A stretch of DNA of 64,000 bases from Lingula anatina (taxonomy: Eukaryota; Animalia; Brachiopoda): contig CM120645.1 of NCBI GenBank assembly GCA_051362555.1, positions 19,468,001 through 19,532,000 on the forward strand, in the 5' to 3' direction. Made by a program: the position numbers and the translations under genes. This document shows, piece by piece, positions 2,975 through 42,953 of the stretch (position 1 is the first letter of the stretch; every line of letters starts with the position of its first letter). The notes under the pieces are model-generated. The model had not been told where the DNA came from and made no database searches. It saw only the letters and a program-made list of their open reading frames with translations.

Positions 2975-5900
2975 TGGTGTGTATTCATATGCATGTGCAC
3001 TCAAGCATGCACATATAATGTTACAATTGATATGTTAATTGCTCATATGTACAGTGTAAGTACACATGCATGTGTATGCAAGCACATACGTATGCAGGTA
3101 CATCGAATTGAAAGAAATATACTTGCACACACTCTTCTTCTAAATTCAATGTTTAATTAATTAAAGTATACTAAAACAGGATCAGATAAAAATCACAATT
3201 AACCATTGCATGGTAGCAGGTATTATGCAGAAACTGAGTTGTGAGAAAAACAATAATATCAACATATAATTTTATTTTGTGATTTGAACAGATAAAGATA
3301 TCCTGAATGGCCTGAAGTGGACAGAGGGACTGGACGACGTATGGAAGCAAAATGCAGAGGATGATCCAAATCTTCTGTGGCAATACTTTGGGGGACAGAA
3401 AGGGTTTTTACGTTCTTACCCAGGTAAATTGATGGAAAATCTCCTCGTTGGTTAAAATTAGATTAGTAAAAGTAGTTACTACTACTTCCACAGTAACTGC
3501 TGCAGCTACCACCAGGTCAACCATTCTTAGACCCCATTCCCACAGATTTTAGATCGATCTATCCCTGTGAGGAGTCTCACTAGATTACTGTCAACGTAGC
3601 TGGCTTAAGCGTCTGTCCCGCCTACTTAAAGCTGTAAAGGGGTAATTAACTACCGTGAGCGCTCGGCTGAGAGCAATTTAGCGTGAACCCCCAGGGAGTT
3701 AGGTCGATCTAGATGGATCGATCTAAATCTATGGAAATGCACTCTTAGATGGCCATCGCTCTATTTCTGTAACACTCTACCTGTCATAGTTGAAGCTATC
3801 TACTTGTATGAGTTCCAGTGTCAAATTACAGATGAAAGTTAATGACTTATTTCGCTCTCTGTATTGATCCTGGGAAAAAAAGCTCTTTGTTAAGAACTTC
3901 ATGACACATTCACAAGGGCACCCAGAGGCAGATCAAATGTGAGCTGGGTACAGAACTCGTGCATTGACTGGGATCCATCAATTGTTACATGCTTAAAGGG
4001 CAGATTAGATCATGTGGAATGTAACTGAATCACATAGATTGTGCCTGCTCAAAATAGAAACTCAGATTGGAAGGGCTATGAGTTATTATGTACGGGATCT
4101 TCACACATGTAAAGCAGTGCCTTTACTGACTGAGAATAGTATCCACATAATGTAACTCGGTGTCTGAATTTCATAATTTCTTTTTGCGAAGAAAAAAAGA
4201 GTGCAATGAACTGGAAGATGGGAAAAGGAAACCTAGTTTGATACAATGTATAAATAATGCTTAGCTTTAAAACAAGAAAACATATCAGAGTAAACAGAGT
4301 AAATGATAAATATAATGAACAGTAACTAGAAATAGTTAATGTTTGAATAATATTGAAATTGGATTTAAACAGTACTTCAATCTTTACAGTTTTTTATAGT
4401 TTTATAATTTTTTCTTTCTTGATTTTATAAATATTAATTTTTATTTTAAATTAATTATAAAATATTGAAAATATTAAATTAATTATAAAATATAATTTAT
4501 TTTATTCATATTACTTAATTTTGGTTATTAATTTGTATATCTGATATTTTCATTAACATTTTAGCCAATGCATGGACTGAAGCCAAGCCTGATCTGTATG
4601 ATGTCAGACGTCGTCCTTGGTACACACAGGGGTCAAGTTCACCCAAAAATATGATGATATTAGTAGACACGTAAGTCTGCCCTATTTATTTATTTTATTT
4701 TTCTTTGCAAATTTCAAACACTTTAAGTATTCCTTATTCCAAATTTTTTGTTATACTTAGTAGTTTTTTTCATCAAAAATTTTTAAATTATGTGTCAATG
4801 GGTACCTTTGCAGTGTAATTAAATGATTATTATTTTTGCCTATTTTGATTGCAGTGTAATTGACAAATTAGTATTAAATAGCAGAATTCTTTTCGCTTGT
4901 GGTTATCAGTTTTGCTTGCTTACAGTTGTCCATTTTACCACTTCTTTTTCTTTTTTTTTTTTGACCCATGAAGAAATGGAATTCATGCAGTATGTTATAA
5001 ATATTTTAAGTTTTTGATCTAAAGGAATGACTTCAACCAAAAAGGCTCAAAAGAACTTGAGATTTAAAGTCTTTTAAAGCTTTTCAGTTCAGTATAGATA
5101 ATTAATTAATAAATCAACAAATAAATGGATAATTTCAGGAGTGGAAGTACTACAGGGGAAGCTCTGCAGCTGATGAAGGAAACAGTAAAACAGTTGCTGG
5201 AAACTCTCGGGGAGAACGACTTTGTGGCAGTAGCAAATGTAAGGTTTTCATTTGATGGTTGAAATAGTCTTCAATATTGGTGTAACATTAAAATGATTAT
5301 GTTATATGTAAGAATGCACACTGTATATAGGGAATGTTTTTGGCTGTTGTGAGTTTAAGATGGAGGTGTGTATACTTATTATCTGTTTAATGTTCACTTA
5401 TTTAAAAAATTCCAGAATTGATGATATGTTTTGGTGACAAAAGATAAAACATAGTGTTCATGATAGTTATTTTCCAAACAGTTGCCAATTGAAAATAATA
5501 ATAGCCAGTTCTTATTTATAAGTCTAGTTATAAGTCCTGACATCTCACAAATGTTCAATACAATGTTTTCCCTTTCAAATTGAAAATCAACCATAAGCAT
5601 ACCCTGCATCTTTTCAGTACTCCAAAACTGAAGAAATCCAAGACACTGTGCGGTACGTGTCAGAATGTTTCCAGGGCTTTGTCCAGGCCACACACAGGAA
5701 CAAGCAAGTCCTGAAAGAGGCAGTGATGGATCTTCAGGCCTCTGGGATGGCCAAATGGGAGGACGCTCTGGAATTTGCTTTCAAAGCTTTCAAAGAGGTT
5801 GAAAAATTTCTACTATATATGGAGTTTGTATTATAGTGCTGAAAAGCATATTGATTAAATAGAAATTGGCTTTAAAGTTTCATTTTCTGTATTTTTCTGT

Positions 5901-6834: not shown

Positions 6835-9800
6835 GGTGACAAGACGTTCGTTTTTGTGAAAGAAGCATGAAACTAGCGAAATTGGCATAATCTTAGCTTG
6901 GAATGGAGCCAGTATCTGCCCCTCCCCCTTAAAAAGATGATTAAAAAAAGACTTGTTAAAAAGTCATAGTTTTCTCCACACTCTTGATGTTGTTTAAGGA
7001 AAATAGTTGGCATTTTCGGAAAAATAATTGAACTATAAAAAGGTCTAATGCTACTTGTATCATGGCAGTGAGTGATGTTGACCTAAACCTTTCACAGACC
7101 TTCTCCATGATTTCAGGATATTTCTCGAAGATACCAGCAATGGGCGCCATCAGAACCACAGTACAGGTGAGGTTTTGTAGACCAATTTTTTTTATACCTG
7201 ATGTTGTTATCATAAGTATAATTCAGGCCATTCTTACACCAAATTTTGTGTTATATTTTGTGTTGCACATGATAAATGTAATTGGCGTCATTCTTGGACT
7301 TTGAATCCAAAACATAAAAGGTATTATTGATGTAATTTATAAAATATTACATTTTTAAATTAGAAATAAAGGCATTTAATATATAGTTTGGCCAGTTTGT
7401 TTGAAAATTAATGGTGTTATTGTTTTAATATATTAAGTGGATGCATTTTGATATATTAATATTTAACTAAAGCACATTTTTACAGCAGATTTAGAGTGTG
7501 AATTCCCATAAGGTATGGTTTAATAAGTACACCAAAGACTTCAGTAAAGTAAATGATGTATTAATTTGATATATTTTTGCTATGGTACATATGGACTGTG
7601 AAATGTGTTTGATAGCCCTTTTTTGATATGATTTCTTTTTCAGATGTTGGACTCTGATTTTACATTCTAGGGCATCTGGTTTACATAACGAAAACCAGCT
7701 TATTACAATACACACTTTAAATGCTTTAAAATTTTAGCCATTTATGAATTTAATTACTTATTTTCATAAAACTGTTTACATATTTGTATTATATAATGCT
7801 TAAGAGGTATTTTACTTCCTAATAACTCATTGGTTGTCACCTAGGAACATGTGGCAGTTGTTGCTAGACCTCTAGTCTTACAGTCTAGAGCATACATACA
7901 AGAATCGGATGTTTATGAAGATGCATTGGTATGGTGGCAGTTAGTAAACAGCCAAGTCATGTGACCCATGTGGGATCCCATTCTTTGTGTGTCTGCATCG
8001 TTGTTGTTGTTGTTGTCCTGTCTTGTTTGTAATGTTTTGTGAAGATCCATGGTTTCATTATTTATTCACTGAAAGCAAGGAAAGAAATGAAGAAAGGAAA
8101 AGTGAAAGGAAAATTGAATATCCCAAAAGTATTATTTGGAAAGATAAATTATGTACTGCAGTGCCAAAAATTGATGTTTTGAAAAAAAGAATAATTGTGA
8201 TAAATAGTTGAATAATTATCATTATAGAAATACGAAGCTATCAAAATTCTCACCAGTGAATACCTGTGGATCTTGAAGCCTCACTTCTGTAGTATCTTTA
8301 TGGGGTGGGATTTTTTTTTTTTTTTTTTTTGCTAGATCCGTATTTACATTGGCAAACATGGCTGACCCTGTGACCTCTGTGTGACCTCTTTATTTTTGGT
8401 ACTGGTGTCAAAATTGTACAGTGTATCCCCCTCTCTCTTCATCAACCAATTTGTTATTTCAGCTTAGTATCCATTGTGTTGAAAGTTAACCCAGTGATGT
8501 AAATTTCCCCATTCTGATTTCTATCCTGTATCCATTATATTTCTGCTTTCAGGAGTAACGGGTACCGTAGATTCCATCTACCTTTGGCTGCATTTACATG
8601 AAACTTGGATTACACTTTTGTTTATCATATTTGACTTGTTTTATTTTTAAGGTTCATGGTTTGTGTGAGTAGTGAAATTTAGTGCACATAAGTAACTGTT
8701 CAGCAACATTTCTAGTCTGTACTTGGAACTATCATGGAGTCATCCTAGAAGGATCCTAATCTTTTACTTGCAAGGGATAACTTTAAGGAAATAACCTTGT
8801 CAAAATATGGAACTGTTCTGGTTCATTTTGGAGGCACTCTCACCCCCAATCAATCCAGGAAGTTTGTGTAAATGCACCCACACCCCCCCCCCCTTACCCA
8901 ACCCTCTTATGTTACTATTTCAGAATTACCCAGCTGTGGTAGGGCGCCCCATGGCGCTGGAGAATATAGAGCACACCCATACCAGCAGTCCCTACCTGGA
9001 CGCAATGGTACACATTTAAATAATATGTACTACTTTATTACCTTTTTTTTTTCATTCAGTGAAAGGAGCAATTTTGCATGGGGAGGGTTTTACATTTTTT
9101 GGTGATAGTTGTTTAGGATATGTCAATTTACAGTTCATGGCTAAGGTTTACTTGGGTGGAATTTCATTTAGTTGGGTGGAATTTCAATTACATTTCTTTA
9201 AAAAATGCTAGGAAAATACAAAATTTGGTGCCTTGGCAGTGGGGTTCTTGGATGATAAGTCAGTTGAATGTTTTGCAGACACTCTTCATAAATCAGAACT
9301 TCATAAATAAGACCTTCAGAACTTCTGTTTTAACAGTTGAGGTGGTGGAACGATACTGGCTCATTACAGAAATAGAATCTCTTTTATGAACTCTTCTGAC
9401 AGCATTTGGGGACTCAAAGAATGCTTTTCCCTTCAAATGAGCTTGTCTTGGTAACTGGCTTGGTGAAAAAAGACTTTACTTGATTAATATAACATTCATT
9501 ACATGTATAAATGCTTGATGTATTTCTCAGATGAATTTTTACTTTCTAAGTTGGAAAGTACACAAAAAAATTAATGACATTTGCATAGTGTCCTGTGATC
9601 TGTTGATATGAATGGAGATAGAAAAGATGCCAATAGCTTTGGAAGGCAAAGGGGTGAGCGTTTTTTATCCAAATGAAAAAAAAAATGTGAAAATTATGAC
9701 CTGGGTGCATCATGGTGGAAATCAGGAAAATAAAACATGGGAAAAAATGAGAGATTTGAAATAAGTTAGTAATTAATATATCTGCAGGAATACCCTTCAG

Positions 9801-12800
9801 GTTATAAGAAGAAAAAAGCTTTTCATTAACAGATTATGACCAAGTGATTTCCTGTGTGTTTGTTGAAGTTGAAGGTTGTATGATTTTTCTAAGTGGTATG
9901 TGAGAATTTCTGAGATGTCCCGTACTAGAACAAAATAACTTTTGTTTTCTTTTGACCAGTAGGTTGAAACTGATATAGTTAATAAAGTTAGATGTTATGC
10001 TGTGTTTTCAGAGGTTAACCTAATGTAAAATTTATTTCAGTTTTTAAAATTTTGCATTATTTTCTTCCTTAATATACCCCCAAAACAGATGCAAAGGTGG
10101 ACCTGAAAGCAACATGGTATTTTTAGATGCATAGTTTAATATTTAAAGATTCACCTTTTTTTTCACAAAAAGGGGGAAAGGGAATTGCTGGCAAGTCATC
10201 CCATGGAGACGAGGATATAACTGATGCAGATTTGTAATTTCTGATTTATCTTTTTATTTATCTGCACATCAGAAATATCCAGAATTGCTGGCAGACACAT
10301 TTGCCTATGGTAACCTGAGCCATGTCCTAGAATCCAAGATGTACATAGATCAAGGGGTAAAGTGAATGACGCCATGGTAACGATGCCATGGTTACGACCC
10401 TAACTTAACCTCCACTTTAGGCATGGAGACTGCCCAGAGTTTGTGTATGATACAGTTTGGTTCCCATTCAGTTTTTATTTTTTTATTTTTTAATTTGTTT
10501 GCTGTAGATTTGAGAAACAGTGTACAGACACAAAGCACAGGGTCATGTTTCACAAATTTAACTTATTCAGATGTCAAAGTTTGACTTAATTTTAAGACTA
10601 AAATGTACAGTAGTATTCCTTTTTAGCCAGGATAATTTTCACCAGTTTATATTTGGTGGGTCCTAGGACTTTTAGGCTCATTGTGAAACGTGATTGGGTA
10701 AATAGCTCTATATTTGAAACTGGGGCTTACATTCTGATTTTGAGTCGGCTACTGGGTATTCATAGTACAATTCTTAGAGTTAAAGGAAAGACAAACTTTT
10801 GACATATGGAGTCATTTTGTGAATTGCAGCCTTTTAACTTTTGGATGGACTAATTAACAGTAGAATACATAAAAAAAACTTAAGTTAGGATTTTATTTGT
10901 TTGTTTTTTATATTTGACAATTTCAGAATTAAACTAGAAAAGACACATTTTACATGCTTGGCCTTTGAAATTAATGAACAAACGCATACAAAATGTCTGT
11001 GCACTGTTTTAAAATATCAGTTCAGTTGATTGAAAAAGTTTTCTTAACAGGAGCTTTTTTGAAATCAACTTCAGCCTTTCATGTTGCAATTTTACTGAAC
11101 AAATTGTTATTATTTTTAGTAAGAAAATTACTTATAGATAGCTTGCAGCTGTCTCAGTTGAAGACTGTTCTCAGAATAATCACCAGGTGGGGTTACAGTC
11201 AAGTCCCTGTTTATTATGTAGGTTTTACAGTTACCACCTGGTGGTAATTAGACATCTTAAAATCTCTCTGAGTATGGACGTGGACTGAGACTTTCACAAG
11301 CTATTTATTAGTATTTTGTTTAGAGAACTTTTCATTGTGCAATGAGTTCATTTGATTTAATGGTTGGTATATAAACAAGTATTCTTAGAGTGTACTTTCT
11401 GAGGATATTGTCATGGCATTTGATTTTTGGCATGTTTGATCTTTCCCTTTATTTCTGTAAGTTTGAAGAAAACTGCCACCATTCATTTCTAGATGAGAAC
11501 TTCAGAGTGCGGAATTTAAAACAGTTAAATCTACTAACAAATTACCTTTTTACATTAGTCATATAATGTGACAAAAGGAAATGACATCAATTTATTTATG
11601 AAAAGAACTTTTTTTCTGGTCACGCAAAAATATAACTGTTCATGGAAATTTATTATCAAATGGCACACACTATTTTTTTTTTTTTTTTTTTTTTTTTAGT
11701 GAAAAAGGTCCAAGAGCTTTGCCTACTATTTATGATATAGCTGAGATGAATTTTGCATGTAAGAAATGCAGCCAAATAAAAGTCAGTATGTGTTCTGAAT
11801 GGTTTCAATGAGTTTGTTGTGTGAATTTAATTGGTGTGATTTAATAAATTAACATTCAAGTTAGAAAGGGAGGGGAGGGGTTTGAAACCCTGGCACTGGT
11901 CACTTACTTCCTTCATTTTTGTGGAGCTGTTGTGATTGATCACTGGTCAGTCCTCAATACAGGAATGATTTGAATTTTTGAAACGAGTGATTGCTTTATT
12001 TTTTTACTTTTTATGTTGCAGTTTTAGTGATGAATGGCAACAATTGCAGTATTTGGGTGCAGTTTTGTTTAAAACTAATGACTTATGAGTTAACAGGATT
12101 TTATTTCTTATTTTTCAGTGAATGATTAGAAGTTGTTTGCTGATTTTTAACTCAGCTACTCAAATAGCAATTGCATTGTTTGCATTTTTACTCATAATCA
12201 AGTTGATTCAATTAACCACTGAATTTAATGTTATTTTCAGTTGTTGCTCAGTACTTTGCAGTGTTTGCTTTTTTGCCACAAAAATAGAAGATATAGTTAA
12301 TCACTAATGATTGAGTATTCTTTTATTTACTTAACTATTTTCAAGTTTTCTGTGATCAGCATAATTTTATAATTGTGCATAGTGCTCCATATTGAATGTG
12401 GCATTCTGGGCTTACACTAGCACCTGATGGTTATACCAAAAGTTAAAAAGTAATTTTACTGTAGACAATAAAAAAGTGATTTTTTTATTTATCATTATTG
12501 ATTCCAATGGGTTTAGAGCAAACATTGATCTTGTGGAATCTCAGCTCATTTGTGAAATGAATGTTTGCCAGATTAAGTAGTGGTATGCGTAAGCCCAGAA
12601 GAGCATGAGGAGGAAAATCCCACAGTTGGTGGCGACACTATACAATTACATTTGGGAGGAAGGGGGTGTTGGGGGTACGCACTCATTGGTCACTTAGTGG
12701 CATAGTGTTCCACCTCCAAATTTAAAGGTGCGATTTGGTCAGGTTTGAAGCATGTGTTTGAAGTTGCTTTTTTCTTTACTTGCATTTTTCTCAGGAGTTT

Positions 12801-15800
12801 TTCACTGTTTTGAATCGCCCACTGGCACTGGCATACAAGCAGTTTTCGGGATGGACCAGTGTTTATGAAGATGCTTTGGTAACAGGAATTATTTGTCACA
12901 ACTTTTGCTGTGACTTTGACATGGCTTCTGGCTGGCGACAAGCCTGTAATTTCCACCCTTAGAAAAATATATATGATAAATGGATATGCATGTAGTATAA
13001 ATTTAGATTAAATTACATACTTGCAAATTTTTCTTTGATTGCCACAAAGAAATTGTTTATCTGACTTGATGTCAGTTTTGGTATGGACATGTATATCCAT
13101 AATTTAACAATCCTTGATCAGAAAGACAGCAGTAAGCTGTACTTAGATATTTGTCCTGAATAATTACATGAACTGCTATGTAGATTTTAAGTGCTGAAGC
13201 CGCGTCTAGTTTTTTTTCCCTACCCAACAGCAAAAATAGTTTGCTCCTATGCAGCTTTAAGCCTTGTCAGATGGCTGGTTTACACACAGTTGTTAAGCCA
13301 TGTCAGATGGCTGGTTTACACACAGTTGTTAAGCCATGTCAGATGGCTGGTTTAAACACAGTTGTTAAGCCATGTCAGATGGCTGGTTTACACACAGTTG
13401 TTAAGCCATGTCGGATGGCTGGTTTACACAGTTGTTGAGCCATGTCAGATGGCTGGTTTACACACAGTTGTTAAGCCATGTCGGATGGCTGGTTTACACA
13501 CAGTTGTTAAGCCATGTCGGATGGCTGGTTTACACACAGTTGTTAAGCCATGTCAGATGGCTGGTTTACACACAGTTGTTAAGCCATGTCAGATGGCTGG
13601 TTTACACACAGTTGTTAAGCCATGTCAGATGGCTGGTTTACACACAGTTGTTAAGCCATGTCAGATGGCTGGTTTAAACACAGTTGTTAAGCCATGTCAG
13701 ATGGCTGGTTTACACACAGTTGTTCAGTTGTGGTAATTATTAAATAAGTAGCCAATTTCTCTTTCAACATTCACTTGTAGAAGCCTTCAATACACATAGT
13801 GAGAGCAATAAAGCTGAAACAACAATACCTTTTTGCCTTGGATCTTAAGAGGTCAAAAATGTTTTAAAATTCTGACTCAAAAAGTTTGTTGTGCTAAACA
13901 TTTAACCTATGGTTCTTTACTTAATATGATCAAATTTAATTGATGCTATTTCCTAAAACAATAATTTTTATAAATGAAGACTCAAAAATTGATTGTAATA
14001 TTTAAAGGAGAAGTCTGTTTCAATTGGGAGTGGGTCATTATAATTATTTATTGTGGCCAATTGGTGATCTTTTATCTGGAAATGATAACATTGGAAAAGT
14101 TTTGTGCTCAAAATTTTGGAACTATTTTTATGAAACCTCTGAAATACTGCACCTTATTGGTTTGATCAAGGTTTGAATAATGGTGTGTAAACCTGCATGT
14201 TTTTCCTGCATGCAGCCCTTCCCCAGTGAAATTAGTGCTGTTAACACCCAGCATGTACAATTTATATAATAGTAGATCATTTCTTAAGAGACTGAATGTG
14301 TTGTGTTGATAAAGCTTGACTTTCTGATGCTTCATCAAAGTGCTTTGATCGCATAGCACCTGCCTCATGGGTAGAAAACATGTTTGGTCTTTTTAGAAAT
14401 GACTTTCTTTTTATACATTTTACAGACTATCAAAAACTTATGTTGCTGCACATTTTTGTTAGGTGTGTTTTTTATGAGAAGCATGTACTTACCTGCACAG
14501 CATGAAAAATATGTTTGTCTTTGTTTTGCATGATGTCTCATATGAGCCCATTTCTCAGATGTATCATGTATTGTTTCACACCAAAATTGGGACATTATTT
14601 TATCTAGTAGATCTATAGGAATGACTATTCTGAGCTATATGCTTCAAAGGTCATTGAGCAGACATAACAAAATATTTAGAACGTATTCAGACTGTGACCG
14701 CTCAGCTTTTTTCAAGACAAAAAGTGGTTGAAGCAGACTTACATTTATGCAATTTCATTTTAGCAAAATGGTGTTTAAGTCTGTAGATTGTTCTTTATCA
14801 ATATAGTCAGTTAAATGCTGGGACCTGTGCACATATGCACACACACATGCACATGCATGCACGCACGCACATACACACACAAACACACACACACAGTTCA
14901 TACTACTGGCACTTATCTCGATTAAGCTTGTATTTTCTGGAAACAACGTGGCTATGCTAATGACAGGAATCAAGGTGTGGTCTATAAGGTACGAGAAAAT
15001 TTCCTCTTCTAGGAAGATATCTGCATTTTCATAAGAAAAACTGAATTCAGAAATTGATTGAATTTTACTAAGAAATGGTCTGTGGAGAATGAAGAAAATG
15101 CTTTCTTTTGTTGCATGTTTGATCCCATCTATAATTCTGAAACTTGGGATGATATTTTATTATGGAATCAACATCATATTTATGTATGTTTATAAATGCA
15201 TGTATGTGTGTGTTTGTGTGTGTGTGTGACCTTATAAATCAATTAAAAATACTTAAGATACAAGTCATTCTGTTCATTTACTCCCCCCACCCCTCAAATG
15301 TCTGAATCTCAAAGGTCACTGGAAACTTGCCTCTCTAAGCCAGAGGTGTGCTGGTGAGAGAGATGAGTTTCCAGCAACCTTAGAAACTTGGGGTGCATCT
15401 GGACACTCAACTATCTTGGATGATGTTGATGTTGTTTTGCATGCAGAAGTAATGAACAGTTTTTGGAGGAATATCAGTTTTTATGTTTACGTAGTTACAG
15501 TTATCAGTCTTGCACCTTTAAAAGTAATATGCTACAACTTTGGTATAATGCATGGAAGTATTGTGAAGCATTTTTATATGATGTTTTAGTGCTTTAGATT
15601 ACAAATGGGCTTTTTTATTTATAATCTTCAGTTCATGAACAATTAAGCACAATTTTTTCATAATTTTAATGGTGCCTAGAACTTTTTTCATTGAAGTTGA
15701 ATTATTAAGGGGAGGATTCGGGCTGAAAGATGTATAACAAATTAAATGCATTTTATGTTTGATGTTGTTCAGCTTTAAAGTTTACCCTTTTTTGTGTCAA

Positions 15801-16286
15801 CTTCCATCTCATCTTTACTAACCTAGCCGCCTAATAACCCAACATAATATACCTTTTCTCCTTATTCACCCCATTGTTTTCCCAAGTTGAAATAATTTTA
15901 TTTTAGATTAGTACTTATGTAATGTATGTCAAATGTATGTAATAAGATTTACATAGATTTGGGCAATTAACTCTGATTCTAAAGTAATAGACATTTGAAA
16001 ATTAATTTTAAATTTTGTACATTTGTTTCATTATTATGTACAGTATTAACTTTTTGAATATTTACACTGAATAAAAGTTACATGAAGCTGACCCCTGGTC
16101 CAGTGATCTGACCACTCCACTGACCAGTGTGTCTGCTGTATTTCAGGGTCTAGGAATGATGATAACACTGACATTACCAGTATACAACAGAAGCACCGAC
16201 TCAGTAAGAGACATAGATTTTATTAATTGATAGGAAAACTTGCTCGATTTTGTATGAATGTTCATAAATAGAATTATTTATTTATT

Positions 16287-18689: not shown

Positions 18690-21600
18690 GTCCTAACTGA
18701 ATTTTAATTATGTATGTGCAAAAAAATCAATGAGAGCTTCTACATGCAAAAAATGAAAAAAATGAGTGAGAGCTTTTCTTTATTTCCAGAGGTACGCCAG
18801 TGAGAAAAACAGGCTATATTTCTACACAGGGATCCCCAACAGTACCTTCAGCCTGGGGCTGGTCATGCCAGATTACTCCATAGTTTATCCTGAGGTCACA
18901 GGATATCAAGCTAAGCAATGTGAGTACTGATAAATTATTCCATAGTTTATCCTGAGGTCACAGGATAATCAAGCTAAGCAATGTGAGTACTGATAAATTA
19001 TTCCACAGTTTATCCTGAGGTCACAGGATATCAAGCTAAGCAATGTGAGTACTGATATATTATTCCATAGTTTATCCTGAGGTCACAGGATATCAAGCTA
19101 AACAATGTGAGTACTGATATATTATTCCACAGTTTATCCTGAGGTCACAGGATATCAAGCTAAGCAATGTGAGTACTGATATATTATTCCATAGTTTATC
19201 CTGAGGTCACAGGATATCAAGCTAAACAATGTGAGTACTGATATATTATTCCACAGTTTATCCTGAGGTCACAGGATATCACGCTAAGGAATGTGAGTAC
19301 TGATATATATCAAGCTAAGAATTTTGAGTACTGATAAATTATTCCACAGTTTTTCCTGAGGTCATAGGATATGTAGCCAAGCATTTTGAGTACTGATAAA
19401 TGATTCCTGTATCTGGTTGCATAAAAAAAGAACTTGTTTGTAACTTTCAGGCCAAAATAATAAGAGAAGTTTGACCCAAGACTTTATCAAATAAAACATT
19501 TTATTTGTCCAAGCCAAAGTTGAATCATTGGCTGTTTAATTATAGTTACTCTATTTAAGTGGATGCCTTCAGATTTATCCTAAATTTAAAGTAGACAAGA
19601 TTTTTTTGTCTTAAAGTTAATACTGGTGCTTTTAAGAAGTTATTGTTAAAACTGGTTACAGAACTATCAGGATATTATGATAAATACTGTGAACAATAAA
19701 AACAGTGGTTCACGTGTCAACATCTACCACCAGGGGCGCCACCTGGTGATGAGGTACGAGGCATGCACCGTGTCACCAACTGTCATAAGAATTTTGGTTC
19801 CAAAAGATAGCCTTTCACACTTTCTCAAAGGACTTCTATATATTCTGTTTCAGTATTGGAGCCAATTGTTGCTGATGCAGACCAAATGCAGCAGGGAGTT
19901 CATGCCCCTTTATGGTACAAAAAAAACTTTCAGTCTTTTCTGTAAAATGCATTTGACAATTGAATGTCAAGCAAATAGTTTTATGTATTAACTTCATTGA
20001 ACTAATCCATTGTAGTCTGCTGATAGAAAAGAGTTACTTTGAGTTATACTTATATCACTGAAGTACAGTGAGTCTTTGTTTTATAGATTAGTACTTACTC
20101 TATTTTTAATACAGATAATGAAATATGCAGATTATGCATTTGTATTATTATTAGTACCACCAGCGTGTACGCTGGCGGTACTCATGGTTTTAGTCCCGAC
20201 CCGTCTCGTACAGCTCCGCCGGCTCCTGCGGCTCCGCAGGATGACGTGGGATACAAGTCACCGTTACCGCTTCTCCTCCTAGACCGCAAGGACCTGTGTC
20301 CCCATCTCTTGGATTTAGGTCACATATAATCTCAACTTGAACACCCAGGTTTTTTTGTCTCAGTTGGTGCATTGACCTGGGCGTGACGCTTGTTGAAACG
20401 CACCCTTGTCAAAATGTTTGAAAATTCAATGCTAAATATCTCCCAGACCGATGGAATTATGGGAAAAATTTCTACAGATGGCTGACCGAAAGTCATATGT
20501 GAGGTTTTCAAATATGCCCTTGGATTTGACCTTTGACCTTTATTTCAAGGTCAAATGGGCCAAAATTTTCTAAAAATAGGAATTTTTTGCGAGAAAATTT
20601 TTATTTCAGCCCATTTTCAGAAACTAAACAGATCTTACCTATAATATTATGGGCAGGTGTTACCCTTAGGGTCATCTTTCATTTTCGTGAGTTTGGGGTC
20701 AATCGGTGCATTTTCATGGTAGCAGCGGCCATTAGATGCCGAAACTGAAAACTCTCTCTAATTCTGGTACCGTTAATGCTAGAGACCTCTTGTTTTATGC
20801 ATTTTGTAGAACTTGTCAAGGGCAACACTGGGGGTAGTGTCTATTTTTTTGTTTTCAATACGGCTTAGGCATTGCACTATATCAAAAAGTTCAACATCCT
20901 AAATTCAGTGGTGAAAATAAAATGTGAAATCCTCAAAAATTAGCAGAGATATGCCCATAGTTACTTTTGAACTTGAATAGGAAGTCATATACTGGTAATC
21001 TAACTGTAAAATTGAAATTGACCTTTGACCTACTTTTCATGATGAACTGCACTTTGCAAGTTTTCTGATCTTTATATCTCCAAAACTGGCAAAGATACGC
21101 CCATAGTTACTATTGAACTTGAATAGGAAGTCATATAATGGCAATCTAACTGTGATCCTGAAATTGACATTTGACCTAATTTTCACCATGAACTGAACTT
21201 TGCAAATTTTCCAGCCCTTATATCTCTAAAACTGGCAGAGATACATCCATAGTTACTGTTGAACTTGAGTGGGAAGTCATATACTGGCAATCTAACTGTG
21301 ACCTTGAAATTGACCTGTGACCTACTTTTCACCATGAACTGAACTTTGAAAAATTTCTCTCCCTTATATCTCTAAAACTGGCAGAGATAAGCCCATAGCT
21401 ACTATTAAACCTAAATAGGAAGTCATATACCGGCAATCTAACTGTGACCTTGAAATTGACCTTTGACCTACTTTTTATGATGAACTGTACTTTGCATGTT
21501 TTCTGGCCTTAACATTTCCAAAATTGGCAAGGAAATGCCCATAGTTACTATTGAACTTGAATAGAAAGTCATGTACTGTGACCTTGAAATTGACTTACTT

Positions 21601-24600
21601 TTTCATCATGAACTGAACTTTGCATATTTTCTTGTCCCTCACATCTTCAAAACAAGCAGAGATATGCCCAGTGTTGCCCCTAGGTTTTCTCTTTTGTCAG
21701 CATATATGCAACACTGATAACTCATTTCAAGGAAAACCAATGGGCCTATTGTCCAGAAAATCACAGGAGTGATCAATGTTAGGAAAATACAGGCTAATTG
21801 GAAAATCCGCTTGATTGGACCATTTTTATGTTATATTTTTTCTATTTTTTTTCATAATACTACTTTGAGAATTCTTGTTTATTGCATAGAGCTTGTCAAG
21901 GACAAGACTGGTTGTGGTGTCCCTTTTTTTTGGGGGGGGGGGGGTTCCATTCGAATGCGCTCACTCCAGCTGGTGGTACACTATCCGGAGGCGGTATCAC
22001 CTCTCTGATCCTCTAGTTATTATTGGATATTTTCAGGATTTGTAACTCTAAGGACATTGTTGTTGACAATTATAACAATACCAATGACACGGAGACATTT
22101 CCTCCAAACCCAGTCAGGGACATGGTGAATGGGAGCAGTTCTTGTGAGTGGTTTTTCAGCAAAGTTGGTTAAATTTATTTTTTTACTGGCAAAGATTATA
22201 ATTAGTAGGTCAACAATTTCACCATCATCAATCATCTTCGCCTCCAATTTTAGAGATAACAATGCATAACCTTCCTGGAATTCACATAAAATTTTGTTTT
22301 AACTGGTCATGACTTGACTGCCATCTAGTGGCTGTTTCTTGGGAAGTTTGCCACATATGATATTCCTAATGACCACTGAAAGCATTAAATCTCCAACATT
22401 CATTTGATGTAGTAGGGAATGCCCTACATATTGAAAATATTAAATCTGCATCACAAAAAAATGTGAACTTTATCCCTTAATCATGTGTAGTATGGTGAAA
22501 CTCTTGAAACATTTTGTGCAGATATTAAATGAAGTAAAGCTTTATTTTTCAAAACGTGTTTTAATATTCTTCCTAGGCAATGACGATCTTGTCCAGCACT
22601 TCCTGTGGGACTACGTGACAACCCAGAATGTCACTGAACATTGGAAGGCCTTGTCTCAGGCATACAAGTAAGCTTTGTGGTGATTTTAACCCAATTGAAA
22701 CTAAATTGATGACTCATATTTTCCCAAAATGTTGCCTTCTTTAATTACCTCAAAATTTAATTGGCAAATTGTTGCTGTTGAGTTGGATTCAACATTTTTT
22801 CGAGAGTCAAGAAAAATTGTGAATGATTATAAAAAAAATTGACAAGTGATGATTTTGAGAAATTGCTGTGACAGAGGAATTTGACATCCTAAATTTTATT
22901 GCACTTTCACTCTGGCAACATTGAATATAACTTAAACAAATTAGGAAAAATATGTAAAATAAATTCATAATGTTAATGCCAAAAATGATATTATTTTTAT
23001 TATTAATGCTGCTGTTATATATTTTAGTTAATTGCAAATATTAAGCTGTCTTATTTTCAGATTCTGATTAAAATTTTGAAGAGGTAGTAACTTGTTTTCT
23101 AGGTCTGCCACAGAGGTTGTCTTTGTTTCCACAAACAGTGGACTGACCAGGCTCTATCCTCATAAGTAAGTGGGTCATAATTGACCACAAGATCGCAATT
23201 TGTCTCATGTGGAAGTATACTGTGAATATGATTTCAGTAGAAATTCTGCTGTTTAGCGATGAATATAATATTAATTCCTCTGAATCAAAAGGCTTCTGTT
23301 TAATGCAGATTCATGTGAATGTTATCAGAATTTAAGTAAAATCTACTGTTGTGTACATGTAAAGTATATATGTTACTGTTGTATATCTTGAACACTTCAG
23401 TATGACAGAACAGCTTCTGAATATGGCCAACCCTCGTGAGAACCAGGAATACAAAAGGGCAATTGATGAGGACCATGTGTTTTTCTCAGCGCCTTACAAA
23501 GCTGGTTAGTAAGGTCGCATGCAGATCTGTTTTAATAAAAAACATTATGAATCAGTATTACAGCCCTGGGTATGAGTTTATAATAGAATCCTTTCTAGAG
23601 TATTTGCTCATCATCAGACTGATTGATTTTTCCCTCTTAGAAGCCAGAAAAAGAACAAAGTCATTTATTTCTAAGTTCTGTCACTTAAGTGTAGGGAATA
23701 GAAATGGCATTTAGTTGTACAATAAAGGGTGAAAGAGAATGCCACAAAAGTATGCACAAATAATTGAATCAACTTTGACCACTTTTCAGTGAAGGACAAT
23801 AACCCCAACACCACTGGTCCAGTGGTCAGTGTCATGAAGTCCATAAGCATGACGGAAAAGGGTGGCAATACCTATAAACCAGCAGGTTTGTAGACTGCAT
23901 AGAGAACAATATGCATGCATGGAGACATACACACGTAAAAGTACACAGTCAGACACACAAAATTATTCATTCCTGTGCATATAAATGCTCGGATATGTTT
24001 TGGTACAGATGCACAAACAGACATGCCTATATGCATAAACTCACATGGAACAGCACATGCACACATATACGTACACAAACACACATGCTAACACGCACAC
24101 AGGATTTTCAGCTTAATTTGACAGTGCTGACAGTGATCCATTTTATGAAGCATTTCTTATATTATACCTATGCTGTTGTAGTGTCTTTCTAAATAATACT
24201 ATTCTGAGATTCCTTTTATGGAGGATAGCTCCTAAATTTATGGAAAATCAATAGCATTGTAAAAATATGCAAATTAACATAAATTGTATTTACATGGCTT
24301 AATTTTATAAATATGTGACGAAATGAATTGCCAGTCATTTTGGTTTCTGCTTTTTTGTACAATTTTGAGATCATTTTATCTTTGGTAATCAGAGAAAATT
24401 AACTATGAAACTAACTAATCTGCAAAAAAAAAAAGGAATAATAGAGTAACTTCATACATCCTTAACTAGTGAACGTAAAATCAAATTTCCAGTGGTTGGA
24501 GCCAAGATGCACCAGACATACTTGACTGAATTGATGAACAATACCAGCCAAGGGCAGTGCTCTGATCTCTCTTTGACTCTCTTCTGTTATCTCATTGATG

Positions 24601-27600
24601 ATGGAGCATTCATTGTGTCAACCAATCAGGAAAAAGATGAGGTAAGTAACATTGACCGTGTCTGCCAATCAGGAGAAAGATTAGTTTAGGGATGCTATCT
24701 ATATCAGCCAATTAGAAGGAAGGTGAAGACCAAGTCAACTGTTTAGGGACTCGTGAAATGTGTGTATGGGGCTGATCTGTTGGTTTTATTTTTTTCTTTA
24801 AAAAGGATATTCTTGAAGTGAAAGCAACAGGGATGTCACTTGAATTGGTTAGAACCTGGAATTACTGAGAGAATTTATATAACTGTATAGTGATAACATT
24901 TATATAGTGTATGGTGGAAACCTTTTTTATTCCAGATTGGGCGCTTTTTTGGTGCAACAGAGCCGGCCCTGATGATGGAACTCTATAATGGATCTAGTCC
25001 TGTTTATAACAGGTGGGTTGTGAACCATGGCTAGTATAAATTATCTTCATATTGTGTTGTTATTTTAATATTATTTGGCAAAAAAGGGACTTAGAAAAAA
25101 GCCTGATTTAAGCTGGGAGGGAGGCTTGGCATAGATTTATTAATGTGAATACTTTTACAATAAATAAGTTTCAAGAACAATTATTTATCTCTACACAGAA
25201 ATTGGAAGGCTTGAAAAAAAAAACGGGTGGAATTTGGGAATGGGACAATAAGTGTACTATGAATTAGATTTTTTCACTGAAGCGATTTGTGTCCTGTTTT
25301 CTAGGGTACAGAACTATGACTGGCAGGGTGTATGTAAACAGCTGCAACTCAAAACAAGTGCTGGACCAAGATCATTCTTCATTGTAAGTCTCTAAAAAAC
25401 AATTGGAATTTACATATTTTCCTTGAATATCTTCATGCAACGTTTATTTGGAATTAAAAAAGAATATGCTCTGAAAAATGAATGTTCAAGAGCAGTTTTG
25501 CATTTGTATCATTTATCAATTTTTATCAGAAATTTTATGGAATGTTGTGTTTTTATATATATTCCCTCAATAAATTTGAGCAAATGTAATTATTGTTATT
25601 TTCCAGTATAATCTTTTATTATAAGTAAAACACAAAATTGAAAATAAAAAGTGGATAAAAAGAAAAGTTAGTTCACATAACATTACTTTGACAAATTAAA
25701 GCATTGGTTTTGAGAAAAAATAATATTGGAACAAGTAAAGATGTTCTGAATATAAAAGTTAGGAATCATTACCATTATTGCAACTGTTTCTTTGCCTTGA
25801 TAGCCCAGCATTCCAGTGTTTGAAATGCTGACAGTGAAATGGTGGACAAGCAGTGTGATGTGGTGAGTCAGTTTCAGTTTCACTTTCACTTTCATTTTAA
25901 GCTCTTACCATTTAGAAATGATTAAGGATTATTTCAAATGAACTTCCAATACAAAATTGACAGATTCATGGATGGCATTGTAAAGACATGACACCAGTTT
26001 GAACCAATTTTTATTTAATTAATGGAAGTTTTTTTTTTTTTTGTGCCATGAATTTATATAATTGTAATTTCTGATGAAGGCCTATCAGGTTTTTAGGAGA
26101 TGTTTTGAGGCTCTTTCAAGGCATTTTATTTATATCCACCATAATCTCACTTGATTGTGTTGTACTCATTTTTCTTCATGAAAGGTACTTATGTTACTTA
26201 ATAATGTCTGTTTTAGGGCATACTCAAATTTCAACTTATACAAGTAAGTTAGTGACATGTTGACATATAATATGAGTTATTTGTGTTTTTTTTTAAGATA
26301 AAAGATTAGAATCTCTTTTAGATCGATACCTTCAAGAAAGTGCAAACCATTTTCATTCTTTGATTTAAGTAAAACTTAAACTTTATTTGAAATAATGGTA
26401 ATAGATAATTTTGAGATAAGAAAGAAATGATGATCTGATTAATGGATTATAAATATTACATACATATCTTTATCAGGACAATTTTACGATTATGCACTAA
26501 TTTCTTTAATTGACTTTAACAGGCCTACCCAACTACCAGACTCGGCACATAAGGATCCTGAATTAACTGGTATATCGGACCACACTACCAGTTTTCAAGG
26601 TGTGTGTCAGATCGCATTTCGGAGTATTATACCCCAGAACAATTTTTGTAGGACGACCGCCGGCTCATCCTGTCGGTGTTCTGACTGATACTCTGAAATG
26701 CGATCTGACACACACCTTGAAAACGGGTAGTGTGGTCCGATATACCGGTTAATTCAGGATCCTTATGTGCAGAGTCTGGTAGTTGGGAAGGCCTGTTTAA
26801 CTACTTTTGTCTTATGTGTCAATCTGCAGTGTGTTCAGATAGAGTGCATTTTATTTTCAGTTGGATATTTGAATCAGCAAAGAGTTTTGGTGAGTGTTCT
26901 TTTTAATTGCAGTGTTTTCATAATCTACATATCATTTAATTGGATGTTCTCTTTGTATATTATTCATTATTTTGACCCACTGAATATTGTCAGTCATATA
27001 CGTTATATTGCTTTTTATATTTTTCTTTTTATTGAGGTTGAGAAAAGAGTAGTTAAGTTTGCATTATCTATAAAAAGGAGACGGGACTGGATCCACTGTT
27101 TTTATATATTTTATGGATATTCAGGCGTTTAATGTAGCTTATACTGTGATTTTGGCTGCTAACATTTTATAATCTGTACCCTTCCCAGCATATGCCCAAC
27201 AAGACTCAGGAGATGGTGGCAGTGAGAAGAATGAGAGTTGCGTTACGGAGCAAGTTCAATACTACTTCACAGATGTCACCTCACTTTATTCTGAACTTGT
27301 CTGTGAAAATTGCACAAGGTATGGTCCAAAAAAGTGTGTGTGTGTCTGTGTGTGTGTGTGCGTGCATGCATGCATGCGTGTGTGTGTATGTGTGCCTTTG
27401 TGGTTATGGCTGAGTATGTGCATGAGTGATTAAGTGACCTAGCATTTCTGTGTGCCTGCATGCACAATTTCAATACACAAGTTTCTAAAACTTAACTTTC
27501 AATCATTCATTCATTCATTGCATTTGTAGCAGCATTTTTAAATAGAAATTTTGAACTCTTTCTTTATTTCTTATTCTAGGCAGTACTCTGTGGAAAAGGT

Positions 27601-40463: not shown

Positions 40464-41771
40464 CTACAGTACAGTCTGGTGAGTGGTCACTGAGGAAACC
40501 CTCACAATAACTGGCCCATTCTCCAGGTCCGAGGAAGCTGTGGACAGCCGCGAAGACAACGAAATTCTGGAGGATCTTGAACCGCCCTGGACAGTGGCCA
40601 CTGAAGAAAGCCTTGAGGTTCTGCGACTGGATCCTTGGTCGGAGGACTCCCGCAAGCTGCCCATAGAAATATCTTTGCCACATCTGAACAGTCGCTTAAG
40701 ACCTAGACGAAACTTGGACCCCATGAGACCGTAAACGAAAAAATTGACGCACGCGTTGAAGCCAGTTAAGAAGTACACTACAGGCCAGACCCACTGGGCC
40801 ATTATGGTGAACTCATACGGCAGGCGGTTTAGGAACACGATGAGAAACTGCAGCAAGACGTGAGGGAACACTGCCAAGAAGAACAGGGTCAAAAGCGTGA
40901 TGACAATACTCGTTACTTCACGCTGGTTACCTTTCACGGCGCTAGAGACGCGGTTTCGCATTTTATCGGCTCTACGCACTGCCACGACGATCTTCACGTT
41001 CAGCGTGATCATAGCCGAGAGTGGTATCGCATAGCTCACAATGGCGTGCAGTACGAACCGGTAAATGATTTTATAGATGCCCCATTCTTTGACCTTAACA
41101 TTAAAGCAGAAATCTTGCGATCCCGGAGAGCATGGCAGATATCCGACGTACTCCGTGTCGAAGAATTTAGGTGTATTGTAAAGGAAGCAAAACACCAGCA
41201 TCGCTACGACGCGGACCCGCCATTTAGCGATGGTTCGCTGTTCGGCCGTCTCGGTGGGCTTGCAGATCGCCATATAGCGATCCAAAGCGACGAAGGTTAG
41301 CATGTAGGTAGATGATAACCGTGCCGTGGCCACAAACGGCCATATGTGTACTATATGGTTCTGAAACACGACAAAGAACCACTCAAGCCAGCCCGAATAT
41401 GGATGGAACGACACGGAACAATATGCGACCATACCAAATATGTTGAACATTATGTCCGTGACCGCTACCATGGAGAGCAGAAACGGAGCCGCTGAGTCGG
41501 TGTTGTCTTTGGATAATACTGCAATTGCAAGCGGGTTACATATCAGCCCTATCACGCAACAGGTGCCCGATGCAAATCCTCCCATTATTACGGTGTACAG
41601 ATTGTATGCGGTTGGGTAGAAAGTCGAATTATTGGGAAGCGTGTCTGTGCAATTACCAGCCGGCCAACCCATTGTTGATACATTGTCAAACTCCATTTCT
41701 GGCAGCATTGATGAAGAGTTCAACGACATCCCAAGAAGTAAGGAGAAATTACAGCCCGACGTCATATCCAT
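40464..41771 (-). CDS. Intronless class A (rhodopsin-like) peptide GPCR, FMRFamide/sex-peptide receptor-like, 435 aa
   Basis: Seven hydrophobic segments; several N-terminal NxS/T sequons; TM1 GLICN, TM2 VAVTD, TM3 ALDRYMAIC, TM4 YNTPKFF, TM5 YAIP, TM7 NACVNFFVY; Ser-rich tail. The subfamily is inferred. Confidence 0.93.
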   Translation of the reverse strand: MDMTSGCNFSLLLGMSLNSSSMLPEMEFDNVSTMGWPAGNCTDTLPNNSTFYPTAYNLYTVIMGGFASGTCCVIGLICNPLAIAVLSKDNTDSAAPFLLSMVAVTDIMFNIFGMVAYCSVSFHPYSGWLEWFFVVFQNHIVHIWPFVATARLSSTYMLTFVALDRYMAICKPTETAEQRTIAKWRVRVVAMLVFCFLYNTPKFFDTEYVGYLPCSPGSQDFCFNVKVKEWGIYKIIYRFVLHAIVSYAIPLSAMITLNVKIVVAVRRADKMRNRVSSAVKGNQREVTSIVITLLTLFFLAVFPHVLLQFLIVFLNRLPYEFTIMAQWVWPVVYFLTGFNACVNFFVYGLMGSKFRLGLKRLFRCGKDISMGSLRESSDQGSSRRTSRLSSVATVQGGSRSSRISLSSRLSTASSDLENGPVIVRVSSVTTHQTVL

Positions 41772-42953
41772 GATTAGATACAGGTGTGATGTTAAAATTA
41801 TATACTGCAGTCTTCCTTACCAAAAACTGATGGCGTTGGCGCTTTGGTGTTTTTTGGTCATTTACAGTACCTCATTTAAGTTTACTTAACAGGCAAGTGC
41901 GCAGATTGATTTTCTTTCTTTCTTTTTTTTTTTTTGTTATAATTGTTCAATTTCATAGTTATCTCCGCAGAGAAAGCGAATGTCCATATTTAGAGAGAGA
42001 CTACGTCTCTGGTTACAGTACCTTTTTATTAGTTTTGGCTCCCTCTTTTGGATGACCCACATTTCCGTCTATATACTGGTGACATGAAGATTTTCTTGCA
42101 TCAACTTTCAGGAAAGTTCAATGATTCTTTAAGAAGCCTCTTGAGCTGGCACGGTCAAGATACCTGCTGCACTTAGTCCAGATCGCATTGAATGGTCATA
42201 ATGCTTGGTATTGTTTTTCTATTGAGCACGGGCGACAACTGCTTCTGGTACTGACCACGTTAATTTGATGTCCGTCTAGTTGTTTATGCACACGTGTTCT
42301 TGACTGACGGGGAAGCTTCATGTTCAATACGCAATTACTGCGCTATGACAGCAAAAGTGTCAATCAAGTGATTGCGTGTTTAGTGGCAAAATAACCAAGA
42401 TTATTTGTTTTGATGATGACCCAAAGAATCGTCACTATAGGTAACACTTACCACCTTGGTAATGAGAACCAACCCTGTGCATAAGAGTAATCTTTATTAA
42501 ATTTACACAGTGCACGCTACAACTTCATATTGCCGCCTCCGCCGCAGAAGCATCTGTCGCATGTGGGAGGTAAAAAGCCGCCATTACCACTACTCTTTAT
42601 GAACAACATGGCCTTTCCCATCGTCTTATGGTAAAGGTTTAAACATAATTACAACTTCAACCTGCTTTGTTTTGTGGGCAGTCAGTACATTTTCGCATTT
42701 CACGCTTGTCATTATTTTAAAAAAATGGAAGAAAATATGGGTGTACTTACATGATGTACTACAGAAATTGACGCAGAAGAAAAAATGTCAAATTGGGAAA
42801 ATTGATTTTATCAGGTGGGGCCATGTTGTTTTTTAATATCAGAAACTCTACAGACCTGGTGCTATTGTACAGTAGCCTCTCTCACCTAGTTAGTCAAGAT
42901 TTAAAAAGTTTGGTTGATCGAAGATAAAATCATGCCTTGAGCAAAGTTGATAC

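Follow-up and report, generated by a model that had tools for sequence, protein, structure and literature searches.

A gene that its sequence identifies as a CaV alpha2delta subunit gene of the brachiopod Lingula anatina contains a cluster of four homologous exons of 84 nucleotides (nt) each (A, B, C, and D). It lies in the 64,000 nt analyzed in this work (assembly GCA_051362555.1, contig CM120645.1, positions 19,468,001 to 19,532,000, forward strand; hereafter the window, whose numbering is used throughout). B, C, and D are genuine alternatives and the choice among them is sample-dependent. Two intronic elements of the cluster can pair with one putative docking site, and we favor, at a probability of about 45%, a two-tier choice in which this predicted RNA pairing would serve the inner tier only, helping to hide B and/or C, with D decided by other factors. 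An initial annotation of the same DNA had described three exons and a docking site downstream of them, the arrangement of exon 5 of Drosophila 14-3-3zeta. The cluster is genuine and has one exon more than first reported, exon D (12795–12878) having been overlooked, and the pairings fail the defining 14-3-3zeta geometry, since the dock lies inside the cluster with exon D 2.2 kb further downstream.

The four-exon cluster and its use in RNA

A search with one cluster exon retrieved two L. anatina alpha2delta proteins, 92 and 98% identical to the query. The exons of one Lingula protein, P0002, follow one another along the + strand over ~2.7–28.4 kb of the window (tblastn), and P0002 matches human alpha2delta-1 with an E-value of 4.5e-175; on these sequence grounds the window therefore holds a Lingula-like CaV alpha2delta gene, and the ion-channel subunit of the initial annotation is correct. 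The family is marked by a VWA domain set within dCache_1 and by the split amino-acid motif YxxxxRxWY ... Y ... D, defined in passages of PMC8915833, which we located in P0002 at residues 103, 333, and 368. The AlphaFold model, with a predicted local distance difference test score (pLDDT) <50 over residues 299–396, was left unused. The exons at the center of this work are the following (HMM, hidden Markov model):

7117–7166 (+), constitutive exon on the upstream side, where the VWA domain ends; donor CAG|GTGAGG; located with P0001/P0002 (tblastn), with RNA joints and loose ends departing from its end
7845–7928 (+), candidate exon A, 84 nt, phase 0, open frame; HMM E-value 6e-8, present in gene model P0001, no RNA junction listed
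8924–9007 (+), exon B, 84 nt, spliced in; junction reads on both sides in run X18
10273–10356 (+), exon C, 84 nt, spliced in; junction reads in X15 and X18, closest to a segment of the annelid Owenia
12795–12878 (+), exon D, 84 nt, the fourth member; homology/HMM, tblastn, and 18 reads of X12
16147–16203 (+), downstream constitutive exon (GLGMM...); tblastn and splice sites, reached by B reads

All four alternative exons are in phase 0, bounded by AG and GT, and open in frame, and a profile of 43 homologous segments recovered them at E-values of 3e-7 or better and gave no other hit below an E-value of 3. Exon D is homologous to exon A and is the form carried by the RefSeq-type protein P0002. 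The introns of the cluster measure 995, 1265, and 2438 nt, all GT-AG, and no cluster splice site matches the U12 donor consensus; these lengths and splice sites, together with the equal size of the exons, rule out exclusion by steric hindrance, by U12/U2 mismatch, or by reading frame. Between A and B, a strong pyrimidine tract with AG is followed at 8553–8638 by ~86 nt that look faintly exon-like, with stops and a frame change. They are possibly a decayed fifth copy, although the resemblance is weak (9/300 shuffles against A, C, and D, and no HMM hit).

Exon use was assessed in three RNA runs bearing the same species label and read in part (6, 6, and 25%), which gave 24, 6, and 42 reads on 7050–10460. 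The read mapping spanned this stretch only, which ends upstream of the dock and exon D, so that D-to-downstream and C-to-D joints fall outside the direct counts. Junction entries required 3 reads, and there were two further loose-end entries beyond those listed. The upstream exon was joined to B in 5 reads (X18) and to C in 3 reads of X15 and 2 of X18; in X12 it continued into the first bases of D (18 reads), no other form being seen there. In 8 reads of X18, B was spliced to the downstream constitutive exon, with both C and D skipped. Being reached directly in some reads and skipped by the B reads, D is therefore a fourth alternative and not a constitutive exon. Neither an exon A junction nor an A–B, A–C, or B–C joint was among those listed for these runs and this stretch.

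Tandem homologous exons used singly are thus what the reads contain for B, C, and D at low depth, with A unseen and D outside the mapped stretch. It follows from these junctions that B, C, and D are real alternatives, as had been proposed for B and C; use of A is unproven, and A looks little used. Exon choice also varied by run: X12 had 0 B/C reads against 18 for D, whereas in X18 7 of 15 upstream-exon reads were B/C (p ~0.0015 by arithmetic on the run counts, all other X18 reads being assumed to be D).

P0001 (with Lingula exon A) and the cephalopod-like transcripts P0113 and P0117 end soon after the variable exon via intron read-through, and these early ends may reflect errors in the gene models or the assembly, or else mark secreted, truncated proteins. 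An older Lingula model (P0158) joins exon A to a sequence that by eye is chloride-channel-like, probably a gene-model fusion. In DNA run X10 a haplotype is present as a 7,102-nt contig across the cluster, ~6% divergent, with 169 substitutions over 2.9 kb; exon B of the X18/X10 haplotype has 6 base differences and 3 amino-acid changes, with the same residues at the Y and D pocket columns discussed below. A metagenome scan with the upstream exon gave four loci of 1.7–4.0 kb, none of which spans a cluster; in one of them (L003) the exon ends at the same boundary and a single variable exon comes next.

Predicted pairings and competing explanations

The elements to which the proposed mechanism refers are these (RNAduplex energies in kcal/mol; net values are after opening costs):

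7958–7995 (+), weaker look-alike of the selectors; duplex -24.3, mostly sequestered locally, net -4.6
8354–8382 (+), candidate selector A, whose pairing would loop out B and C; duplex -24.5, net -10.4
9686–9708 (+), candidate selector B, whose pairing would loop out C; duplex -22.4, 17 Watson-Crick and 2 G-U pairs, net -14.4
9833–9859 (+), second look-alike, in the B–C intron, sharing ATTATGACC with selector B; -12.7 with the dock
10528–10554 (+), candidate docking site, 172 nt past the end of exon C and upstream of exon D
10682–10693 (+), third competitor for the dock, a local hairpin that would leave C exposed; 12 pairs, one G-U (read from the sequence), -13.7
12987–15554 (+), nine hexamers TGCATG, of the RBFOX type, within the intron that follows D; shuffle mean 2.4, reached by 0/500 shuffles, two of the nine in microsatellite-like sequence
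16083–16125 (+), branch-point-like region of the downstream exon with three CTGAC in a row, partly dock-complementary; -13.5 with a flat penalty, net -3.7, accessibility-aware -11.2

The selectors, the dock, and the first look-alike are present where the initial annotation had placed them. A direct count in its register gives the 22 Watson-Crick pairs and the 10-bp core claimed for selector A, for which ViennaRNA favors another register (18 Watson-Crick plus 2 G-U), and the pair count claimed for selector B holds as well. The look-alike is weaker than the selectors: of its duplex energy of -24.3, little is left once the opening costs are paid. Both selectors cover dock bases 10534–10550, so the two duplexes compete and are mutually exclusive. 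With accessibility taken into account, selector B is the second-best partner of the dock in the 64 kb, each being the best cluster partner of the other (-15.5 versus -11.7 for the next), and selector A is its fourth-best, the dock being the best cluster partner of selector A (-14.6 versus -11.0). Our own duplex code, with Turner-2004 stacking values and simplified loop terms, gave -24.8 and -22.4 for the selectors, where ViennaRNA gave -24.5 and -22.4, and -21.2 against -24.3 for the look-alike.

What such pairings could achieve is limited by exon D. The initial annotation had the first duplex looping out B and C, thereby selecting A, and the second looping out C; the exclusion of one duplex by the other stands, but a duplex with selector A would keep both A and D available, and one with selector B would keep A, B, and D. 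The model as written therefore fails to choose one of four, and the predicted pairing cannot by itself pick a single exon. With one dock, a candidate selector is found behind A and B only, and not behind every exon but the last.

In the two-tier choice, protein factors would decide between D and the upstream exons, and these are plausibly RBFOX proteins acting on the TGCATG-rich intron behind D (this is the weaker tier). Inclusion of an exon is generally promoted by RBFOX sites that lie downstream of it. In the inner tier, the dock at 10528–10554 would pair with 8354–8382, hiding B and C, or with 9686–9708, hiding C, or would fold back on 10682–10693, leaving C free. The outcome would be to set B against C and to suppress double inclusion. 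As A looks little used, the first of these pairings would mostly aid splicing of the upstream exon straight to D.

The pairing was compared with chance by scoring the claim whole, that is, one site of the C–D intron pairing with both the A–B and the B–C introns, under either a flat per-base length penalty or local accessibility (own IntaRNA-like code), against shuffles and against real-sequence triples from other parts of the window. The accessibility-aware scoring is the more realistic of the two and the nearer to the IntaRNA check proposed in the initial annotation. As raw energies alone, the duplexes do not stand out: -24.5 or better is attained by 204 distinct tile-pair loci of the cluster. 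With accessibility, the dock ranks first among the two-partner sites of the C–D intron (-14.6); of the shuffles, 1/60 global and 2/46 block ones did as well; with low complexity masked, 5/329 real triples were as good, and 0/329 in the first 500 nt. With the flat penalty it is the second-best site of the intron, and restricting the comparison to the first 500 nt gave 14/176 dinucleotide shuffles, 24/170 block shuffles, and 54/192 real triples. The comparison with shuffled introns proposed in the initial annotation is therefore split between the two scorings: there is modest support for a pairing modestly above chance under accessibility (p ~0.015–0.04), but it is ordinary under the flat penalty.

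A number of observations weigh against the two-tier reading. Over the whole intron the flat-penalty triple is at background, with 49/176 dinucleotide shuffles, 102/170 block shuffles, and 142/192 real-sequence triples as good, and in the accessibility-aware scoring 40/176 unmasked real triples reach the score of the dock (9/176 in the first 500 nt), the 14 strongest of the unmasked triples being mostly poly-G/poly-C or TG-rich. The p-values are optimistic because the site was picked post hoc and other layouts would have counted too. The 10-bp core alone is about at chance level between introns of this size (~2 expected by estimate). Flat-penalty searches found no selector system covering D: a terminal dock in the intron from D to the next exon, pairing with all three inner introns, did not stand out (best -10.65, scored without a null), nor did an upstream dock of the Dscam exon 6 type in the first intron (best -7.45, weaker than the triple-null means though without a matched null). 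TGCATG also clusters at 2990–3207 and 27363–27457, and only one of the nine hexamers is near D. The read counts (24, 6, and 42, with D outside the mapped stretch) are small. Finally, exclusivity may be leaky, as the gene models of gastropods include two-exon isoforms (Pomacea, Physella, and Biomphalaria RefSeq sets) and zero-exon models occur in several sets.

In a rival explanation, the complementarity is due to chance, and the four exons, with weak splice sites, are chosen by tissue-specific RNA-binding proteins alone; we regard this as nearly as likely as the two-tier choice. The TGACC words of the pairing resemble branch-point-like or repeat words common in the genome: TGACC[CT] occurs 40 times in the window, and a near copy of the dock core lies at ~54490–54510, far from the cluster. 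The flat-penalty nulls and the unmasked controls agree with this explanation, a complete system would need its dock in another intron, and sample-specific exon use fits regulation by factors. What argues for the predicted pairing instead is that its elements are reciprocal-best partners and that the masked, accessibility-aware controls so seldom equal them, and never within 500 nt of the exon.

Two other arrangements received less credence. The site at 10528 could be a two-way hub, whose upstream pairing would hide B and C and favor D, and whose downstream pairing, with 16083–16116 or 12908–12934, would hide D and favor B or C. The former partner, in the region of the three CTGAC motifs (16088–16125) ahead of the downstream constitutive exon, is the best that the dock has in the D intron under the flat penalty (-13.5), and a three-partner site within 500 nt of C appeared in 5/213 global and 15/235 block shuffles (pooled). 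However, net energies after opening costs are just -3.7 and -5.8, accessibility-aware values of -11.2 to -11.6 are common to three unrelated sites of the D intron, the counts for the whole C–D intron are 4/47 and 16/37, and the idea is itself post hoc, which makes the hub improbable. As for the original scheme of three exons and a terminal dock selecting A, B or, when unpaired, C, its predicted duplexes do compete, but a D homologous to A, to which the upstream exon leads directly in 18 reads and which B skips in 8, leaves it very little likelihood unless a separate layer governs D, as in the two-tier choice, and none of the joints listed bears out a selection of A.

Distribution of the exon array and other features of the window

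The exon cluster itself is old and already known in molluscs: for CaV alpha2delta of Aplysia, Crassostrea, and Octopus, Table 1 of PMC5818475 gives a set of three exons, mutually exclusive, that lies between the VWA domain and the Cache domains. We surveyed isoform sets in 10 clusters plus 9 of 10 clusters in a second set, the tenth having no part at this position. At the exact position, the first set had two segments in Lineus, three each in Pomacea, Mizuhopecten, Octopus, Physella, Biomphalaria, Littorina, Ruditapes, and a cephalopod-like set, and one in Strongylocentrotus (13/14 members cover the site). The second set had four in Argopecten, two in Patella, one in Potamilus (2 members), and a three-exon tandem model in Elysia, with a single segment in Diadema (9/9 members), Lytechinus (12/15), Centruroides (3/5), and a chelicerate-like set (3/5); its ninth cluster was the Lingula P0001 pair, both members carrying exon A. 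Among annelids, gene models of Capitella and Ridgeia contain tandem segments and Owenia has a clear match to exon C (score 61.5, next best 25.5). Apart from this C–Owenia pair, no one-to-one orthology to the first, middle, and last exons of molluscs emerged from the comparison. Judging from these gene models, the array appears to be lophotrochozoan-wide and absent from echinoderms and chelicerates on this sample.

Elsewhere in the window, 18880–19390 holds ~7 tandem copies, spaced ~62 nt apart, of a coding exon's 3' end together with the donor site, and these could supply extra 5' splice sites. The intron behind D contains a 36-nt tandem repeat of ~13 copies (13257–13752), and an intron segment at 20150–21650 has many repeated TGACCTTTGACC-like words, probably the remnant of a mobile element. 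There are two further open frames, one of 450 codons on the - strand (40467–41816), by eye like an intronless rhodopsin-type G protein-coupled receptor, and one of 190 codons on the + strand (59357–59926), rich in proline.

Relation to known systems and the ligand pocket

Competing pairings in Drosophila 14-3-3zeta exon 5 and Mhc were reportedly described by Yang et al. in 2011. In the accounts of these systems in sections of PMC4174434, PMC4691838, and PMC6071210, two intronic elements behind alternative exons complement one downstream site (IE1 and IE2 versus IEa in 14-3-3zeta), as they would here. There, however, the dock is downstream of the cluster, conserved, and mutation-tested, whereas the predicted Lingula dock precedes the last exon. 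The proposed model also resembles srp and Dscam exons 4 and 9, with bidirectional pairing (described in part of PMC4691838), and human ATE1, with competing structures (in passages of PMC7797038), in combining more than one layer of pairing or regulation for exclusivity; unlike in srp and Dscam, no upstream dock stood out in Lingula (best -7.45) and the second layer is only a candidate. A term search of the C. elegans survey PMC4165533 gave no mention of unc-36 or tag-180, and our literature search, with subscription papers mostly outside it, found no paper combining a docking site and a selector sequence in molluscs.

The closest precedent is the mollusc CaV alpha2delta of PMC5818475, the same gene with exons at the same position, where the Octopus exon ends QHY..DSH and QEF..DRS match segments recovered here; the molluscs described there have three exons and the brachiopod Lingula has four. 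Neither a splicing mechanism nor a link to the ligand pocket was found in passages, part of the Results, and a term search of the supplement of that paper. Our literature search, in which PMC5818475 alone mentioned the mollusc cluster, likewise found no statement linking the exon cluster to the pocket. The splice regions A, B, and C of vertebrate alpha2delta-1, as portrayed in part of PMC9901441, are likewise a case of splicing in cache domains, with one variant of lower gabapentin affinity. They are cassette exons or an alternative acceptor, assigned to a loop or to the second dCache domain, whereas in Lingula whole homologous exons swap the segment with the pocket residues.

The 28 residues swapped by the cluster align to E425–L454 of human alpha2delta-1. 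According to passages of PMC12634952, Y450 and D452 are pocket residues and L454 is a hydrophobic contact for mirogabalin. All four Lingula exons retain Y and D at the Y450/D452 columns, whereas the first exons of gastropods have mostly H/T and those of bivalves Y/G, and Y is absent in most middle exons; these column calls depend on gap placement in the 27-residue forms. Because of this alignment, the isoforms are likely to differ near the pocket for amino acids and gabapentinoids in the first dCache domain, which could in turn affect ligand binding.

Taken as a whole, the array appears to be common to brachiopods, molluscs, nemerteans, and probably annelids, and one may speculate, although we consider it rather unlikely in this complete form, that a lophotrochozoan competing-RNA switch, its dock inside the cluster and contested by three rivals (two selectors and a local hairpin), tunes an exon array that rebuilds the alpha2delta pocket and, in molluscs, whose first and middle exons often lack one of the Y450/D452 equivalents, yields natural pocket-on and pocket-off isoforms of a single gene. 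If the pairing works, control by docking site and selectors would extend to a lophotrochozoan, with an internal dock that covers only part of the cluster. Regardless of the RNA structure, the exon array would provide natural isoforms differing in the segment that contains Y450, D452, and L454, through which the role of the conserved alpha2delta pocket in animals would become testable.

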